From IMG/VR virus record IMGVR_UViG_2724679538_000007, positions 1 to 38,703 of that record: a stretch of DNA of 38,703 nt; one strand, 5' to 3'. Under the pieces are notes generated by a model that did no database searches, was not told the DNA's origin, and saw only the letters and a program-made list of their open reading frames with translations. Source of the stretch: a virus. Lineage: Duplodnaviria > Heunggongvirae > Uroviricota > Caudoviricetes. The translations under genes were made by a program, and so were the position numbers. Below are positions 4,400 through 37,416 of this stretch, piece by piece; within the stretch, counting starts at the first letter, position 1, and every line of letters begins with the position of its first letter.

Positions 4400-4585
4400 A
4401 GGATGCTCCTTCTGTTTGATTGCATAACGAAAACGCCTCGAGTGAAGCGTTATTGGTATGCATATAAAAAGGCCCCCACATCGGAGGGCAAAGAAGATTT
4501 CCAATAATCAGAACAAGTCGGCTCCTGTTTAGTTACGAGCGACATTGCTCACATAGCAGACTCGTAAATCTGCTATAGGCGCTTA

Positions 4586-5010: not shown

Positions 5011-5049
5011 GTTAGCCTCTGTTGTTTGTGCCAAAAATAAAGGCCACCA

Positions 5050-5301
5050 TCAGGCAGCCTTGTTGTAAATGTTGCAGGTATCAAGTAAGTAATTAGATGG
5101 AGCGCCATAAATTATGAATTCATCGTTTGTCGGGTCCATCTCCATCTCTTGGCCTATTGCCATTCTTGCGTCAGTGTCATCAGAGGCGAAGCATAAAACA
5201 GCCCACGCACCCATTGTTTTAAAAAGAACTGCAATTGGCTGTGGTTTTACTGAATTTGCGTTAGCGCGAAAATCACAAATCGCACTTTCATGAAACTCCA
5301 T
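5050..5301 (-). CDS. Hypothetical protein (83 aa)
   Basis: ATG with GAGGT RBS; PL operon orientation. Confidence 0.55.
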   Translation of the reverse strand: MEFHESAICDFRANANSVKPQPIAVLFKTMGAWAVLCFASDDTDARMAIGQEMEMDPTNDEFIIYGAPSNYLLDTCNIYNKAA

Positions 5302-13911: not shown

Positions 13912-14531
13912 GACTCGAAAGCGTAGCTAAATTTCATTCGCCAAAAAGCCCGATGATGAGCGACTCACCACGGGCCACGGCTTCTGACTCTCTTTCCGGT
14001 ACTGATGTGATGGCTGCTATGGGGATGGCGCAATCACAAGCCGGATTCGGAATGGCTGCATTCTGTGGTAAGCACGAACTCAGCCAGAATGACAAACAAA
14101 AGGCTATCAACTATCTGATGCAATTTGCACACAAGGTATCGGGGAAATACCGTGGCGTTGCAAAGCTTGAAGGAAATACTAAGGCAAAGGTACTGCAAGT
14201 GCTCGCAACATTCGCTTATGCGGATTATTGCCGTAGTGCCGCGACGCCGGGCGCAAGATGCAGAGATTGCCACGGTACAGGCCGTGCGGTTGATATAGCC
14301 AAAACAGAGCAGTGGGGGAGAGTTGTTGAGAAAGAGTGCGGAAGATGCAAAGGTGTCGGCTATTCAAGAATGCCAGCAAGCGCCGCATATCGCGCTGTAA
14401 CGATGCTAATCCCAAACCTTACTCAACCCACCTGGTCACGCACTGTTAAGCCGCTGTATGACGCTCTGGTGGTGCAATGCCACAAAGAAGAGTCAATCGC
14501 AGACAACATTTTGAATGCGGTCACACGTTAG
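13908..14531 (+). CDS. Q: Late-gene antiterminator Q, lambda type (207 aa)
   Basis: MRLESVAKFHSPKSPMMSDSPRATASDSLSGTDVMAAMGMAQSQAGFGMAAFCGKHELSQNDKQKAINYLMQF... matches lambda Q essentially throughout as I recall it. Confidence 0.95.
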   Translation: MRLESVAKFHSPKSPMMSDSPRATASDSLSGTDVMAAMGMAQSQAGFGMAAFCGKHELSQNDKQKAINYLMQFAHKVSGKYRGVAKLEGNTKAKVLQVLATFAYADYCRSAATPGARCRDCHGTGRAVDIAKTEQWGRVVEKECGRCKGVGYSRMPASAAYRAVTMLIPNLTQPTWSRTVKPLYDALVVQCHKEESIADNILNAVTR

Positions 14532-14574
14532 CAGCATGATTGCCACGGATGGCAACATATTAACGGCATGATAT

Positions 14575-14610
14575 TGACTTATTGAATAAAATTGGGTAAA
14601 TTTGACTCAA
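14575..14610 (+). promoter_or_regulatory. Late promoter PR' with overlapping qut site
   Basis: TTGACTtattgaataaaattgggTAAATTtgactc is the lambda PR' sequence (-35 TTGACT, -10 TAAATT) as I recall it, directly downstream of Q. Confidence 0.75.
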
Positions 14611-14637
14611 CGATGGATAAATGCACTCGTTAAATAA

Positions 14638-14673
14638 AGCCCTGAGTTAATAGCTCGGGGCTTTTTGCGTTTT
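14638..14673 (+). terminator. Short hairpin plus T-tract about 30-65 nt downstream of the PR' start (possible early terminator of a short leader RNA)
   Basis: AGCCCTGAG-ttaatag-CTCGGGGCT followed by TTTTTGCGTTTT. Confidence 0.4.
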
Positions 14674-14809
14674 AAGCACGGCCTTTCTGAAAGCACATCA
14701 AACCAAATACCAGACAGACAAAAATAATCACCTTATCCGCTGTGGCTACGGTGCGGTGTGCTTTGCATAAAAGAAAACCAGCTCAATGGCTGGCTTCGTG
14801 AAAGCGGGT

Positions 14810-14845
14810 GGCAAGAGGTTGCGCTAACAACCTCCTGCCGTTTTG
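14810..14845 (+). terminator. tR'-like terminator of the 6S-type late leader transcript
   Basis: GGCAAGAGGTTG-cgctaa-CAACCTCCTGCC followed by GTTTT; near-identical to the lambda tR' hairpin as I recall it. Confidence 0.6.
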
Positions 14846-14966
14846 CCCGTGCATATCGGTCACGAACAAATCTGATTACTAAACACAGTAGCCTGGATTT
14901 GTTCTATCAGTAATCGACCTTATTCCTAATTAAATAGAGCAAATCCCCTCAATGAAGGGGTAGAGC

Positions 14967-15170
14967 ATGTACCGTATGGACAAAATCAGAGAATGGTTCA
15001 GTTACAGCTTCGGAGGACTGACTGCGATGGGTGGCATTCTCTCCCTGAATGACTGGGCTGTCATCATTGGTATTCTTTGTACTGTCGGCACATTTGGCAT
15101 CAACTGGTACTACAAGCGCAAAGAGCGCGAGGACAGATTGAATGGCAATGTCACCGGCACTACGAAATAG
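14967..15170 (+). CDS. Holin, small two-TMD class (pinholin-like, 67 aa) with dual-start motif
   Basis: MYRMDK... has Met1 and Met4 separated by a basic residue (holin/antiholin dual start); Gly/Ala-rich TMD1, second TMD, charged C-terminus KRKEREDR; RBS overlaps a hairpin (cccctcaatgaagggg); first gene after tR'. Confidence 0.75.
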
Positions 15171-15645
15171 CGTAATAGCGGCGATAAGTGGCGGGGCTAT
15201 TGCTATAGCATCTGTGTTAATCACTGGACCAAGTGGTAACGATGGTCTGGAAGGTGTGAGACATAATCCTTACAAAGACATAGTTGGTGTATGGACTGTA
15301 TGTTACGGGCATACAGGAAAAGACATCATTCCCGGTAAAACGTATACCGAAGCAGAATGCAAAGCCCTCCTGAATAAAGACCTTGCCACGGTAGCCAGAC
15401 AAATTAACCCGTACATCAAAGTCGATATACCGGAAACAACGCGCGGCGCTCTTTACTCGTTCGTCTACAACGTGGGTGCTGGCAATTTCAGAACATCGAC
15501 GCTTCTTCGCAAAATAAACCAGGGCGATATCAAAGGCGCATGTGACCAGCTACGTCGTTGGACATATGCTGGCGGTAAGCAATGGAAAGGGCTGATGACT
15601 CGCCGTGAGATTGAGCGTGAAGTCTGTTTGTGGGGGCAACAATGA
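15142..15645 (+). CDS. SAR endolysin (T4-lysozyme-like muramidase with N-terminal signal-anchor-release domain, 167 aa)
   Basis: N-terminal Gly/Ala-rich weakly hydrophobic segment [20 protein letters not shown] followed by a lysozyme catalytic region ([22 protein letters not shown]) as in phage 21/P1 SAR endolysins. Confidence 0.9.
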
Positions 15646-16079
15646 ACAGAGTAACCGCGATTATCTCCGCTCTGGTTATCTGCATCATCGTCTGCCTGTC
15701 ATGGGCTGTTAATCATTACCGTGATAACGCCATTACCTACAAAGAGCAGCGTGATAAAGCCACATCCATCATCGCTGATATGCATAAGCGTCAACGTGAT
15801 GTAGCAGAACTTGATGCCAGATATACAAAGGAGCTTGCTGATGCTAACGCGACTATCGAAAGTCTCCGTGCTGATGTTTCTGCTGGTCGTAAGCGCCTGC
15901 AAGTCGCCGCCACCTGTGCAAAGTCAACGACCGGAGCCAGCAGCATGGGCGATGGAGAAGGCCCAAGACTTACAGCAGATGCTGAACTCAATTATTACCG
16001 TCTCCGAAGTGGAATCGACAGGATAACCGCGCAGGTTAACTACCTGCAGGAATACATCAGGACGCAATGCCTGAAATGA
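15642..16079 (+). CDS. Rz: i-spanin Rz (145 aa)
   Basis: [34 protein letters not shown] matches the lambda Rz N-terminus; coiled-coil remainder. Confidence 0.9.
15841..16026 (+). CDS. Rz1: o-spanin Rz1 (lipoprotein, about 61 aa) embedded in the +1 frame of Rz
   Basis: [20 protein letters not shown] lipobox followed by a proline-rich segment; AAGGAG RBS 7 nt upstream; embedded architecture as in lambda. Confidence 0.75.
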
Positions 16080-16115
16080 TCGGGCGATGAAAACCAAAAA
16101 AAACAGGAGCAATAC

Positions 16116-16391
16116 ATGACTAAGCTTTATCACCGCATCTCAACTTTTCTCTCTGGTTGCTGGGCGTTTATCACGTCTATTTCGTTCGCCATCTTTAGTT
16201 TCGGTAGCACAGCGTGCTCGCTTAGTCGGGGTCTGTGGCGTGCTATTTCAGCACTAGCGCCGAAATTTTTACCTGAAAAGGCTGTTTGGCGAATTGTAGA
16301 GCGAATGTGTAGTGAGAGCGTTCGCGAGAAGATTAACGTATTTGGACGTCATCCTCGAAATACAGGCGCATTGTGCAGTCCGTTACTGTAG
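16116..16391 (+). CDS. Hypothetical protein (91 aa) with one hydrophobic segment, in the lysis-terminase gap
   Basis: AGGAG RBS; region where lambdoid phages carry morons; no family recognised. Confidence 0.45.
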   Translation: MTKLYHRISTFLSGCWAFITSISFAIFSFGSTACSLSRGLWRAISALAPKFLPEKAVWRIVERMCSESVREKINVFGRHPRNTGALCSPLL

Positions 16392-16399
16392 TCATTACA

Positions 16400-16421
16400 A
16401 AGCCCATCTACGGGTGGGCTT
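16400..16421 (+). repeat. Stem-loop element 1 (AAGCCCA-tctacggg-TGGGCTT, followed by GATAATG)
   Basis: Perfect 7-bp stem immediately after the stop of the 16116..16391 ORF; paralogous to the element at 16697..16722. Confidence 0.45.
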
Positions 16422-16696
16422 GATAATGAAACCAGAATTTATTCTGGGAAACCAGTTACGGCAGTACAGCGAAACAACCCAAGCCAGTAAGTGGGGAAAT
16501 AACACTGGCAGCCACTGAAAGATGAACCTCCTGCCTTATGGCAAAAAAGATTCTTTGTGGTGGCGGACTGATGGAAAGACATCCTAATTTCAGCCAAACA
16601 TTGAAGGAGTTGTTATGTCAGCAGAAGGTTTCAATAACCCATCAAAATTCCGGGATGAGTGGGATAGCAGCGTAAAGAGTAAGTGATGCCATCACA

Positions 16697-16722
16697 AAAG
16701 CCATTCCCTACAGAGTGGCTTT
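16697..16722 (+). repeat. Stem-loop element 2 (AAAGCCA-ttccctacagag-TGGCTTT, followed by GATAATG)
   Basis: Same stem sequence class, related loop core (CTACAG vs CTACGG) and identical 3' GATAATG as element 1. Confidence 0.45.
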
Positions 16723-16791
16723 GATAATGGCTTATACCCTACACGGGATAACTTAACTGATATCCCTTTTAACGGATAAACGGAGCCAACA

Positions 16792-17034
16792 ATGGCAGAG
16801 ATTATTCCCATGACTGAAGAACAGAAATTCCAGCTAGAGATTTACAAACTGGTCATGAACCAGAACGCAGCCGCAGAGGAAGCATTTCAGTTCATTGGCA
16901 CTGACGAGCTGAAGCTTGAGCTATTCAAAATTCACTTCCAGTCAGGCGGCGCTAATTCGGATATCACGACCCGAACTATCGAAGCGGTGCGTAAATCGAA
17001 GGAAGCGTTAGACCTGTTCACCACCGGAGCATGA
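16792..17034 (+). CDS. Hypothetical protein (80 aa) upstream of the terminase genes
   Basis: ORF with a plausible RBS, co-oriented and tightly packed with terS. Confidence 0.5.
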   Translation: MAEIIPMTEEQKFQLEIYKLVMNQNAAAEEAFQFIGTDELKLELFKIHFQSGGANSDITTRTIEAVRKSKEALDLFTTGA

Positions 17035-17035
17035 T

Positions 17036-17230
17036 GTGAGCCGCGTAATCAATTTGGGTAAGGAGAAGAAATTCCCAATTACTCAAGAGCTATACGAGAG
17101 GCTGGAAAGCGTCATCCATGATTACGATGGCGAAATCAGTTTATGCGAGGCGATTGGCACACTCGAATTGCTGAAGCAGTCATTGATTGAAAGCATGAAG
17201 AGCCAACGACCTGAAATAACAAATAAGTGA
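17036..17230 (+). CDS. Hypothetical protein (64 aa)
   Basis: Starts 2 nt after the previous stop; tightly packed upstream of terS. Confidence 0.5.
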
Positions 17231-17231
17231 G

Positions 17232-17726
17232 ATGAATATGGCAGCACCAAAGGGCAACCGATTTTGGGAGGCCCGCAGTAGTCATGGGCGAAATCCTAAA
17301 TTCGAATCGCCTGAGGCGCTGTGGGCTGCTTGTTGTGAATACTTCGAGTGGGTAGAAGCTAACCCGCTATGGGAGATGAAGGCGTTCTCGTATCAGGGGG
17401 AAGTGATACAAGAGCCTATCGCCAAGATGCGAGCGATGACCATTACCGGCCTCACTCTGTTCATTGATGTGACGCTTGAAACATGGCGCACATATCGCCT
17501 GCGAGAAGATTTATCTGAAGTCGTTACGCGAGCAGAGCAGGTCATCTACGACCAGAAATTCTCTGGCGCAGCCGCTGACCTTCTCAACGCTAACATCATC
17601 GCCCGTGATTTGGGCCTCAAAGAGCAGTCGCAAGTTGAAGACGTGACACCTGATAAGGGAGATCGCGATAAGCGGCGCTCTCGTATCAAGGAGCTATTCA
17701 ACCGTGGAACTGGACGCGATTCTTGA
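17232..17726 (+). CDS. Terminase small subunit, P22 gp3-like (164 aa)
   Basis: [38 protein letters not shown] resembles P22 gp3 as I recall it; precedes and overlaps terL. Confidence 0.8.
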
Positions 17727-19203
17727 TAACCTGAGCGACGAAGAGCAAATAGAATTGCTCGAGCTACTCGAAGAAGAAGAGAACTACCGTAACACACACC
17801 TGCTATATGAATTTACGCCATACAGCAAACAGCGTGAGTTCATCGACGCCGGACATGACTATCCAGAGCGATGTTTTATGGCTGGTAACCAGCTTGGTAA
17901 GTCATTTACTGGTGCTGCTGAAGTCGCGTTTCACCTTACAGGGCGTTATCCGGGAACAAAAGGCTATCCGGCTGATGGTAAATATGGGGGAGAGTGGAAA
18001 GGTAAGCGTTTCTATGAGCCGGTTGTCTTCTGGATTGGCGGCGAGACAAACGAGACGGTAACCAAAACGACTCAACGCATCCTGTGCGGTCGTATTGAAG
18101 AGAATGATGAACCGGGCTACGGTTCAATACCGAAAGAAGACATCATTAGCTGGAAGAAGTCTCCTTTCTTTCCGAATCTTGTTGATCATCTTCTGGTTAA
18201 GCATCACACGGCTGATGGCGTTGAAGATGGCATTTCAATCTGCTACTTCAAGCCATACTCGCAAGGCCGCGCTCGCTGGCAGGGTGACACAATCCACGGT
18301 GTGTGGTTTGACGAAGAGCCACCATACAGCATTTATGGCGAAGGTCTTACCCGTACCAACAAATACGGGCAATTCTCAATTCTGACGTTTACCCCTCTGA
18401 TGGGGATGTCTGACGTTGTTACCAAGTTCCTGAAGAACCCCAGCAAGTCGCAGAAAGTGGTCAACATGACCATCTATGACGCTGAGCACTATACCGACGA
18501 GCAGAAAGAGCAAATCATCGCATCCTATCCCGAACATGAGAGAGAGGCGCGTGCTCGCGGTATTCCTACGATGGGTAGTGGTCGAATCTTCCAGATACCG
18601 GAAGAGACGATTAAGTGTCAGCCGTTCGAGTGTCCTGATCACTTCTACGTAATTGGCGGGATGGATTTCGGATGGGATCACCCACAGGCGCAGGTTCAGC
18701 TTTGGTGGGATAAGGACGCAGACACAATCTACGTTTCACGCGTGTGGAAGGCGAAAGAAAAAACAGCGGTTCAGGCATGGGGAGCCGTTAAATCTTGGGC
18801 GCATAAAGTGCCAACCGCATGGCCTCATGACGGAAACCAGCACGAGAAGGGCGGCGGTGAGCAGCTTAAAGGGCAGTACGCGGACGCTGGTTTTATGATG
18901 TTGCAGGAGCATGCGACATGGCCTGATGGCGGTAATGCTGTTGAGCCTGGAATCACTGAATTGCGCGACATGATGCTTGATGGTCGCTTCAAAGTATTCA
19001 ACACCTGTGAGCCATTCTTTGAGGAGTTTCGCCTCTATCACCGTGATGAAAACGGGAAGATCGTCAAGCTTAACGACGACGTTCTCTCAGCCGTTCGCTA
19101 TGCATACATGATGCGCCGCTTCGCCAAAATGATGCGCGACATCAAAAAACCAAAAGAGAAGAAGATACCAGCCCCAATCAGGCCCATCGCACGGAGAACT
19201 TAA
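17704..19203 (+). CDS. Terminase large subunit, P22 gp2-like (499 aa)
   Basis: Same length as P22 gp2; ATPase motif region ([13 protein letters not shown]) and a C-terminal nuclease-like region. Confidence 0.92.
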
Positions 19204-36499: not shown

Positions 36500-37416
36500 T
36501 GTGTTTTACCTTTTATTATATAACGAGGTCTCATCTTTGTTTCTGTGTAAATTCTTCCAATGTATTCACCTAGCACACCAATACCTATCAATTGGACGCC
36601 GCCAAGGAACAGAATAGACACGAGCAATGAAGGATAACCACGAACAGGGTTTCCAAACACCAGTGTGTCAAGAATCATCAACGCACCGTAAATAAATGCC
36701 ATACTGGCAACAAAAAGCCCGATATAAGTCCACATGCGTAGTGGGAATGTTGAGAAACTTGTTATTCCCTCAAGGGCTAAATTCCACAACTTCCATCCGT
36801 TAAATTTCGTGCTCCCTGCTACACGTTCGGCGCGAACATATTCTACAACATCAGTCTTTCCGCCAACCCAACTCAGTATACCCTTCATGAATAGGTTGCG
36901 TTCTTGCATGAGCTTAATATTTTCTACAACTTCACGGCTCATTAACCGGAAATCACCAACATTTTCCTCAATCTTTGGATTACTTATTTTGTTGTGTAGC
37001 TTATAGAACCACTCAGCAGTTTTGCGCTTCAGACGACCATCAGTAGATCGATCTGATCGTTTGGCAAGAACCATATCAGCGCCTGCCTGCCACTTTTCTA
37101 TAAGATGAGGAATAACCTCAATCGGGTCTTGCAGGTCAACATCAATTGGAATCACGGCATCGCCAGTTGCATGGTCTAACCCTGCAAACAATGCTGGTTC
37201 TTTACCAAAGTTGCGTGTAAATGACAGCGGAACAACTAGCGGATCAGAAACAGCCAGAGCGTTAATGATTGACTCCGTAGCGTCTTTGCTTCCGTCATTT
37301 ATGAAAACAATTTCTACTTCATATGACTTCAACTCTTCGAATTCACGTACCGTTTTATAGAAAATTGGTATCGCTTCTTCTTCATTGAAGACAGGAACGA
37401 CCAGAGATATCTTCAT
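36496..37416 (-). CDS. gtrB: Bactoprenol glucosyltransferase GtrB (GT2 family, 306 aa)
   Basis: [19 protein letters not shown] ... INDGSKD ... two C-terminal TM helices; typical GtrB organisation. Confidence 0.92.

Follow-up and report, generated by a model that had tools for sequence, protein, structure and literature searches.

Paired irregular hairpins in the lysis-terminase gap of P22-like phages are probable T7-type RNase III signals at cassette junctions

The gap between the lysis and terminase genes of a P22-like phage genome (Lederbergvirus, near Sf6, HK620, and N7), analyzed here as the 38,703-nt virus record IMGVR_UViG_2724679538_000007 (the whole of this stretch being called the window), contains two related hairpins, e1 and e2, on the + strand. 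By analogy with phage T7, e1 and e2 are probably RNase III processing and stability signals in the late mRNA that double as recombination linkers. This reading draws on the structure, strand, covariation, and distribution of the hairpins, on their coincidence with mosaic junctions, and on their resemblance to sites of T7 and to RNase III determinants from the literature. A preliminary description of the window had offered three possibilities for the pair, namely RNA processing or stability elements, binding sites for a phage protein, and translational control structures for micro-open reading frames (ORFs). The first of these is favored here and sharpened to putative processing signals of the T7 type. 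As far as could be determined, the hairpin family was previously undescribed.

Structure of the two hairpins

Both hairpins were recovered by folding, by a covariance model, and by a model of T7 sites. Hairpin e1 (16392-16429, +) consisted of a 6-bp lower stem (UCAUUA/UAAUGA, 16392-16397/16424-16429), a 2x2 internal loop (CA 16398-16399 / GA 16422-16423), a 9-bp upper stem (AAGCCCAUC/GGUGGGCUU, 16400-16408/16413-16421), and a UACG tetraloop (16409-16412). Hairpin e2 (16689-16730, +) had the same plan: a lower stem with one C.A mismatch (CCAUCA/UAAUGG, 16689-16694/16725-16730), a 2x2 internal loop (CA 16695-16696 / GA 16723-16724), a 10-bp upper stem (AAAGCCAUUC/GAGUGGCUUU, 16697-16706/16713-16722), and the apical loop CCUACA (16707-16712). 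The RNA of positions 16390-16435 folded at -21.8 kcal/mol (z -6.25 against dinucleotide shuffles, with 0 of 200 shuffles equally good), and that of positions 16688-16735 at -21.1 kcal/mol (z -5.93 on the same basis). A repeat search returned both as inverted repeats (e1, 16392-16406/16415-16429; e2, 16688-16706/16713-16731) and also found a direct repeat common to their 3' sides, GTGG(G/C)(C/T)TTGATAATG.

Two paralogous stem-loops, as the preliminary description had it, are thus present, and folds, repeat search, and covariance-model matches all place them far from chance. The arms it had paired do pair; the stems are 9 bp (e1) and 10 bp (e2) rather than 7 bp, and the lower stem had been overlooked, as had the coincidence with mosaic junctions and the likeness to T7 sites described below. 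The GATAATG that it took for an identical 3' flank is common to both hairpins and is structural rather than flanking, being the 3' half of the internal loop (GA) followed by lower-stem UAAUG, which pairs with upstream CAUUA or CAUCA. Each hairpin follows a stop codon, as it had also stated: the TAG at 16389-16391 abuts e1, and a TGA at 16684-16686 precedes e2 with a gap of 2 nt.

Distribution of the hairpin family

BLAST searches with the elements matched 147 and 134 phage records. Family members were found in P22, HK620, Sf6, HK022, HK140, ES18, and Stx phages and in phages of Klebsiella, Enterobacter, and Aeromonas, and e1 was present by BLAST in 1356 of 5426 complete E. coli genomes. There were one to two copies per genome. 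Reading of five related loci yielded a third variant, e3 (UUAUUG-CA-GAGGCCAUUC-AAU-GAGUGGUCUC-GA-CAAUGG), which replaces e2 in HK620, HK140, N7, HK022, and P22. The layout of the family comprised a 6-bp lower stem (CCAUUA/UAAUGG), a 2x2 CA/GA loop, an upper stem of 9-10 bp, and a variable apical loop (UACG, UACA, UGCU, AAU, CCUACA, and others). The orf25 annotated in P22 (NC_002371 40329-40406) takes its start codon, an AUG, from the apical loop of e3 and reads across the hairpin; this ORF is doubtful and probably an artefact of annotation.

A covariance model built from related phages (model R1) scored e1 at 58.3 bits (E 3e-14) and e2 at 47.6 bits (E 4e-11), and beyond these two there was no match with E < 0.1 in the whole 38.7-kb window. 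In 91 related loci, model R1 gave about 140 significant matches (E < 1e-6), every one of them on the gene strand. A structure-only scanner applied to 550 kb gave 114 matches on the gene strand and 0 on the opposite strand. The hairpins always ran in the direction of the late genes and, in the 91 related loci as in the sampled divergent phages, were intercistronic and on the transcribed strand. In the sampled divergent phages they lay mostly in the gap from Rz/Rz1 to the terminase small subunit. In more distant phages they stood 3' of Rz/Rz1 or of accessory genes and 5' of the terminase small subunit, and one distant-phage hairpin followed a structural (probably tail) gene bearing Big_2.

Two further hairpins depart from the usual pattern. 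One, a family member in N7 (positions 74-111 of the N7 locus examined), is found 5' of the holin gene and so not in the lysis-terminase gap; with a score of 23 bits (E 0.006), it has an unrelated upper stem (GGAUGCAUU-UAUG-AGUGCAUCC) and a CA/AU internal loop. The other, a hairpin of Klebsiella phage ST13-OXA48phi12.5 (positions 2894-2931 of its locus), has a 6-bp lower stem, a CA/GA loop, a 9-bp upper stem, and a 4-nt loop; its sequence differs throughout and has neither the AUG nor the U.G distal box, and its homology is uncertain. This hairpin was in the seed alignment of the model, and its score is not independent evidence.

A cmscan of positions 14000-18500 against Rfam 15, with E up to 10, returned only a chance match to NsiR1 at 14615-14669. 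The literature search by sequence gave chance matches only and no paper on these hairpins, papers on the pid locus do not mention them, and a search for RNase III sites in the late mRNA of temperate phages found nothing. The records examined carried the hairpin without RNA annotation, and among the matches listed none of 40 E. coli records annotated e1 as RNA. The GenBank record of phage Ayreon labels its e2 homologue a 'terminator'.

Covariation and strand

The preliminary description had proposed conservation and covariation in lambdoid and P22-like genomes as its check, and both were found: the family is widespread and its upper stems covary strongly. In an alignment of 29 distinct variants, 97.2% of the cells were paired and 13 of the 16 pairs had changed on both sides; when the partner strand was slid by 1-3 columns as a control, pairing fell to 33-52%. 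These 29 variants were gathered with a scanner that demands pairing, and the pairing fraction therefore carries an ascertainment bias. That bias was absent from a search of viral contigs in which only the lower stem and internal loop were fixed (CCATTACAG...CGATAATGG). It gave 38 viral matches, 21 of which had upper stems of 6-10 bp, and the remainder showed 1-2 chance pairs. Upper stems new to the set included GCAGGCAUUC/GAGUGCCUGC, GAGGCUGUU/AGCAGCUUC, GAAGCUCUUC/GAGGGGCUUC, and others. A similar motif minus the fixed first upper-stem pair (CCATTACA...GATAATGG) was scanned in arbitrary bacterial and archaeal genomes; a stem was present in 1 of the 120 matches listed, a result that serves as a negative control and says little on host range.

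Compensatory series were seen in the upper stem, where one pair is G-C in P22, G.U in HK620, and A-U in HK140, and at the innermost pair of the lower stem (A-U, G-C, and G.U). The G.U pairs, and the C-to-U changes that make them, fit the + strand only. Scores on the opposite strand did not exceed 19.6 bits, compared with 39-59 bits on the gene strand. Because the upper stems covary and the G.U pairs fit one strand only, a single-stranded fold of the + strand, most simply the late RNA, is under selection.

Likeness to T7 RNase III sites

The cleavage coordinates of the T7 sites, reportedly given by Dunn & Studier 1983, are taken here to be 890, 1468, 3138, 5887, 6448, 13892, and 36856. The feature tables returned for two T7 records contained no RNase III sites, and the identity of the T7 sites used below comes from these coordinates together with the R1.1 sequence used in published constructs. 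Each coordinate equaled the end of a folded upper stem plus 3, a consistency check only, which supports these values and puts the cut 3 nt beyond the upper stem on its 3' side. When folded, T7 R0.3, R0.5, R1.1, R1.3, and R18.5 each had an upper stem, of 9-10 bp except for 13 bp in R1.3, that was set off from a lower stem by an internal loop; the loop was ACUC/UAUGA, in reduced form in R1.3. Folds of R1 and R4.7 showed the upper stem alone or were less clear.

The upper stems of the two families are close in sequence. T7 R0.3 (AAGGGUAUC-GCAA-GGUGCCCUU) corresponds to e1, and T7 R1 (AGGUCAUC-UGCG-GGUGGCCU) to the e1 of HK022 (AAGCUCAUC-UGCG-GGUGGGCUU), with which it shares 14 consecutive identical nucleotides, UCAUCUGCGGGUGG. 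T7 R1.1 (AAGGUCAUUC-GCAA-GAGUGGCCUU) corresponds to e2: by eye, the two arms are alike at 8 of 10 and 9 of 10 positions, with the same U-A/U.G next to the loop. The counterpart of T7 R18.5 (AAGGCCACUA-CAGA-UAGUGGUCUU) is e3. The apex of R18.5 (T7 36834-36849), CCACUA-CAGA-UAGUGG, also mimics the CCAUUA-CA...GA-UAAUGG of the lambdoid hairpins, which may be coincidence.

Covariance-model matches were obtained in both directions. Applied to the whole T7 genome with filters off, model R1 placed the T7 sites R1.1 (E 0.009), R1 (0.041), R0.5 (0.19), and R1.3 (0.84) within its top five; by our own estimate, based on ten sites of ~40 nt and a search space of 80 kb, the chance of such a coincidence is ~1e-9. 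A second model (R2), built from the seven T7 sites only, ranked e1 second in the window (18.9 bits, E 0.007) and e2 third (18.8 bits, E 0.008). The hairpins thus resemble the bona fide sites at the level of models, with modest individual E-values.

Overall, the two sets are alike in being paralogous irregular hairpins, intercistronic in a long polycistronic phage mRNA, with a near-identical upper-stem consensus (AAGNNCAU(U)C...G(A)GUGNNCUU), U.G (and U-A) by the loop, and A-U/A-U/G-C at the foot. A stop codon at or within the lower stem is likewise found in T7 R0.5 and R18.5. They differ in setting, since the present hairpins belong to temperate lambdoid phages transcribed by host polymerase from a late promoter, and in number, with 1-2 copies per genome here; cleavage here is proposed by analogy.

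Fit to published RNase III determinants

For the RNase III of E. coli, Pertzev & Nicholson (PMC1540722) reported that U-A and U.G are optimal in the distal box, that the proximal box reads G-C, A-U/U-A, A-U, A-U/U-A, and that an 11-bp helix separates the loop from the cut, the sequence of the loop being irrelevant. According to the review by Nicholson (PMC3867540), internal loops confine cleavage to one strand, the 3' hairpins left by cleavage are stability determinants, and the early T7 precursor of ~7000 nt is processed at five such signals.

The present hairpins have the form of irregular RNase III hairpins, with a lower stem, an internal loop, an upper stem of ~10 bp, and an arbitrary loop. 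Pairs were counted in 61 unique hairpins, positions being numbered from the foot of the upper stem. Position 8 was U.G in 51 of the 61, and position 7 was A-U in 46. Position 9 was U-A in 32 hairpins and C-G in 25, C-G being the closing pair of the 9-bp type, as in T7 R0.3 and R1. Nearer the foot, position 1 was A-U in 35 hairpins and G-C in 25, position 2 was A-U in 55, and position 3 was G-C in 39. The internal loop was CA/GA in 57 hairpins. A distal box is present in both window hairpins: e2 has U.G (position 8) followed by U-A (position 9), and e1 has U.G at position 8 with a C-G closing pair like that of R0.3 and R1. In the proximal box, the foot of e1 reads A-U, A-U, G-C, like R1.1; that of e2 reads A-U, A-U, A-U, G-C, shifted by one; and e3 has G-C at the foot. 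An upper stem of 9-10 bp, a 2x2 loop, and a 6-bp lower stem together give ~17-18 stacked pairs, compared with a determinant of at least 11 bp from loop to cut and some two helical turns in all; natural T7 upper stems are likewise of 9-10 bp (13 bp in R1.3), and T7 lower stems are longer. The determinants would account for the combination of one conserved wobble pair with a freely varying loop, which would otherwise be odd.

Several points weigh against an RNase III signal of the T7 type. At position 1 of the proximal box e2 has A-U for G-C, and at position 3 e3 has G-C for A-U. The internal loop is a symmetric 2x2 CA/GA here and ACUC/UAUGA in T7; the lower stem is of 6 bp here and 7-10 bp in T7; and its sequence differs from T7 and is conserved (CCAUUA/UAAUGG). 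RNase III alone accounts neither for the near-invariant, AUG-bearing lower stem nor for the strong preference for a stop codon, in most cases TAG, right at the 5' edge. E-values across the two models were modest (0.007-0.8). Model R2 by itself is not very specific, because its top match in the window was a terminator-like hairpin at 5034-5065 (-) and because e2 scored equally on the minus strand. Finally, the T7 cleavage coordinates were checked here for consistency only, and cleavage of e1 and e2 is argued by analogy.

The hairpin at 5034-5065 (-) lies in the leftward early operon; its AAGGCUGCC-UGAU-GGUGGCCUU is followed by UAUUUUU, and it looks like an intrinsic terminator. Another hairpin of the leftward early operon, at 4548-4579 (-), stands 3' of the stop codon of a 52-aa ORF.

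Stop codons and mosaic junctions

Homology of the window to HK620, Sf6, HK140, N7, and P22 began or ended at 16388/16392, 16433, 16691, and 16713. To the left of e1 there were at least 12 unrelated sequences, and to the left of e2 seven; the left flank of e3 was always segment E, a conserved stretch described below. In Stx phage 2851 a lone e1 is joined directly to the right flank of e2/e3. In Ayreon (positions 1950-2047 of its locus), a 42-bp insert with a terminator inside is flanked by two copies of CATTACAAA; this looks like a target-site duplication or like crossing-over between two hairpins. Cassettes inserted before e2, in Ayreon and at three other loci (around positions 2870-2939 of the latter), end in a canonical terminator followed by ...TTTTTATTG|CCAT(T/C)ACA.

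Among 38 distinct contexts, 21 have no nucleotide between the hairpin and the stop codon of the ORF before it, and 27 have at most 3 nt. This stop was TAG (frequently as GTAG or TAAG) in about 8 of 11 independent gene families, compared with 16% TAG among the long ORFs of the window (P ~5e-5).

In the reading preferred here, the hairpins are conserved functional RNA signals at the ends of cassettes, and their conservation lets them serve as crossover points too. As a description, a short conserved sequence at the junctions of exchangeable modules fits them, and it is compatible with an RNA function. Boundary sequences of HK620 were reportedly described by Clark et al. in 2001. Lambdoid boundary sequences are similar in that they too are short, conserved, and located where modules meet, and could guide homologous exchange; generic linkers of this kind differ in that the present hairpins show RNA-type covariation. 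In the fetched part of the Sf6 record, which spans both Sf6 copies, the hairpins were absent from the bsq features, the only such feature there being bsq7, inside gene 63.

Alternative explanations

A stable hairpin at the 3' end of a cistron could act with no part for RNase III, either as a plain barrier to 3' exonucleases or as the target of another host or phage RNA-binding protein, and the conserved foot (lower stem and CA/GA loop) below a variable apex is the pattern expected of recognition at the base. We regard this as unlikely: a simple barrier needs neither a conserved internal loop nor U.G/U-A pairs, no candidate binding protein co-occurs with the hairpins (the flanking genes are unrelated between phages), and the cross-matches with T7 would go unexplained. 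The models for such a barrier are the repetitive extragenic palindromic (REP) elements and bacterial interspersed mosaic elements (BIMEs), enterobacterial imperfect palindromes that occur in hundreds of chromosomal copies just past stop codons and stabilize the upstream mRNA. The hairpins share with them the imperfect palindrome after a stop, the repetition, and the portability, but there is no sequence relation and no RAYT-type transposase is linked here. The GTAG that often stands 5' of the hairpins also precedes REP elements, and it is one of several features that would suit an element acting purely as DNA, whether a recombination linker or a relic of a hairpin-recognizing mobile element, with no RNA function. 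Inter-phage homology starts and stops within a few nucleotides of the hairpin edges, e1 stands behind at least 12 unrelated genes, and the junction in phage 2851 and the CATTACAAA duplication in Ayreon point the same way. Such coincidence of junctions is, however, expected of any conserved element between variable cassettes; there are only 1-2 copies per genome and no linked transposase or recombinase; and compensatory changes by way of G.U on one strand indicate that selection acts on the transcribed strand when it is folded as a single strand. A DNA-only element is accordingly judged very unlikely. The binding of a phage protein to the hairpins as DNA, which the preliminary description had considered, also fits poorly with the G.U-specific covariation and the freely varying upper stems and loops.

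Translational coupling or start masking is a further alternative. Here the lower stem would hide the AUG of GAUAAUG, and a ribosome finishing at the abutting stop would melt the stem, its restart relaying ribosomes across the gap or setting downstream structures. The AUG is indeed nearly invariant, the upstream stop abuts or nearly abuts the hairpin in most contexts, and the mini-ORF after e2/e3 enters an arm of mutually exclusive hairpins just ahead of the Shine-Dalgarno (SD) sequence of orf80. Yet the mini-ORFs that start at this AUG are unlike in length and sequence, ranging from 3 to 30 codons and having no SD: MKP* in HK620 and Sf6, MKPELISGH* in HK022, MEKQ* in CobraSix, 30 codons after e1 of the window, and MAYTLHGIT* after e2/e3. 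One variant has no AUG (CAAUAG), where the change of U.G to U-A keeps the pair, and some copies are directly followed by the SD and start of a normal gene. Coupling would also leave the conservation of upper-stem positions 7-9 and the T7 likeness unexplained, and we hold it to be quite unlikely; the micro-ORF control of the preliminary description founders on the same unconserved, SD-less frames and the variant without AUG. A role as weak intrinsic terminators, which would end moron transcripts but let Q/gp23-modified polymerase pass, is suggested by the 'terminator' label in the Ayreon record, and like the intrinsic terminators that close morons the hairpins are GC-rich and lie at the 3' ends of accessory genes. 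They differ from these in having no U tract, their tails being GAUAAUGA and GAUAAUGG, and the preliminary description had rightly said on this ground that they are not simple terminators. A terminator scan of 14500-18000 listed 10 sites and neither hairpin, at least four different cassettes carry a true terminator (GC stem and T5-7) directly upstream of e2, and the lower stem and internal loop play no part in termination; this explanation is considered extremely improbable.

Other candidates were set aside. A sigma-70 promoter with GATAAT as its -10 would have no acceptable -35 or extended -10, and a promoter scan was empty there. A DNA operator is unlikely, as the sequence is conserved at the foot only and the rest covaries through G.U on one strand. 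The known phage small RNAs lie elsewhere: PreS/LPR1 between ea10 and ral, LPR2 and 6S near each other in another part of the late operon (the 6S region adjoins pR'), and sar, sas, and StxS at other places. P22-like phages package DNA by pac and HK97/HK022-like phages by cos, and a packaging signal was ruled out by inference from the presence of the hairpin in both.

Genes and other features around the hairpins

The late operon of the window runs on the + strand from the holin gene through lysozyme (15142-15645) and Rz (15630-16079) to a 91-aa accessory ORF 3' of Rz (16116-16391), whose TAG stop touches e1. The accessory ORF also occurs in HK140 and N7, and other phages have unrelated genes in the same slot. 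Between the hairpin region and the terminase lie orf80/DUF2560 (16792-17034, +) and a small ORF (17036-17230, +), followed by the small (17232-17726, +) and large (17704-19203, +) subunits of terminase. Upstream of the holin gene there is a strong terminator-like hairpin with 13 pairs and a T-run (14636-14664, +); this is presumably the tR'-like terminator of the late leader, through which the Q/gp23 antiterminator lets transcription pass.

Directly 3' of e1, a small hairpin (CCAGAA-UUUA-UUCUGG, 16432-16447, +) folded at -6.9 kcal/mol (z -3.1), which is weak evidence for a structure. The preliminary description had called this sequence, CCAGAATTTATTCTGG, a perfect palindrome; it has only 6-bp arms flanking TTTA. 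HK620 and Sf6 have a 75-nt insert in its place. Next comes segment E (16451-16583, +), a conserved non-coding stretch of 133 nt between e1 and e2 that is 96-98% identical in P22, HK620, Sf6, HK140, and N7, with mosaic flanks. Segment E is too conserved for covariation. A small-protein gene was rejected there, as 40 variants showed A6/A7 frameshifts, a 1-nt deletion, and loss of both candidate starts. Segment E also holds an anti-SD-like ACCUCCU. The 23-codon ORF of the preliminary description was confirmed at 16615-16686 (+), with its GGAG ribosome-binding site at 16606-16609; it belongs to a 129-bp cassette (16584-16712) that only a subset of phages carries, and it stops 2 nt before e2.

Between e2/e3 and orf80 there is a conserved leader (16727-16791, +) with a mini-ORF and two small hairpins. 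The mini-ORF, MAYTLHGIT* (16727-16756, 9 codons), runs into one arm of two mutually exclusive pairings, GGGAUA (16745-16750)/UAUCCC (16761-16766) and UAUCC/GGAUA, after which come the SD of orf80 and its AUG at 16792. This layout looks like an attenuator. The leader accompanies the hairpin in phages 2851 and Ayreon despite a different downstream gene.

Proposed mechanism and implications

As putative RNase III signals, e1 and e2 would work as follows. The transcribed + strand would fold into a quasi-continuous helix of ~17-18 bp, in which host RNase III would read a proximal box (A-U, A-U, G-C, the lowest pairs of the upper stem) and a distal box (U.G/U-A by the apical loop). The internal loop would restrict cleavage to a single-strand cut on the 3' side, ~3 nt past the upper stem and within GAU|AAUG; on the T7 pattern, the predicted cuts fall after ~16424 in e1 and after ~16725 in e2. 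The upstream RNA, with the lysis genes and the accessory cassette, would then end in a stable hairpin that blocks 3' exonucleases, and the downstream RNA would begin with a 5' monophosphate, so that the late mRNA would be split at cassette boundaries into lysis genes on one side and terminase and virion genes on the other. If both hairpins were cut, an RNA of ~300 nt spanning segment E would, by speculation, be released. At the DNA level, a conserved element of ~38 nt placed right after the stops of many unrelated genes may provide short homology for recombination, which would explain why mosaic junctions fall at the hairpin edges.

Host RNase III is known to set mRNA stability at hairpins of lambdoid transcripts in lambda itself, at the sib retroregulator, the N leader, and the late-RNA leader, where the helices are long and near-perfect. 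The present hairpins would act in like manner but differ from the lambda sites in position and sequence, and the lambda sites are not bipartite hairpins of the T7 type. To our knowledge, no RNase III site of lambda has been described in the lysis-terminase gap.

A broader proposal, which we advance tentatively and with considerable doubt, is that the hairpins form a plug-in slot for accessory genes of the late operon. Each cassette would consist of a gene ending in a stop (usually UAG) and a hairpin, the hairpin serving in the RNA as a portable insulator and 3' end, through RNase III cleavage and the protection that the remaining hairpin gives, and in the DNA as a crossover point for the exchange of cassettes, and segment E, with a cut on either side, might be released as a functional RNA of ~300 nt. 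The arrangement would be likened to that of integrons, without an integrase.

If the hairpins are RNase III signals, temperate lambdoid phages would cut up their late mRNA in much the way that T7 treats its early mRNA, and lysis and accessory genes would no longer be tied to the packaging and virion genes in expression and stability. The hairpins are present in the classic model phages P22, HK620, Sf6, and HK022 and in prophages of about one quarter of complete E. coli genomes. A compact insulator of this kind may also be of use in engineered operons. For the phages themselves, such signals would ground the standing of the lysis-terminase gap as a favored site for cargo genes (pid, rha, kilA-like, and others) with sharp junctions.

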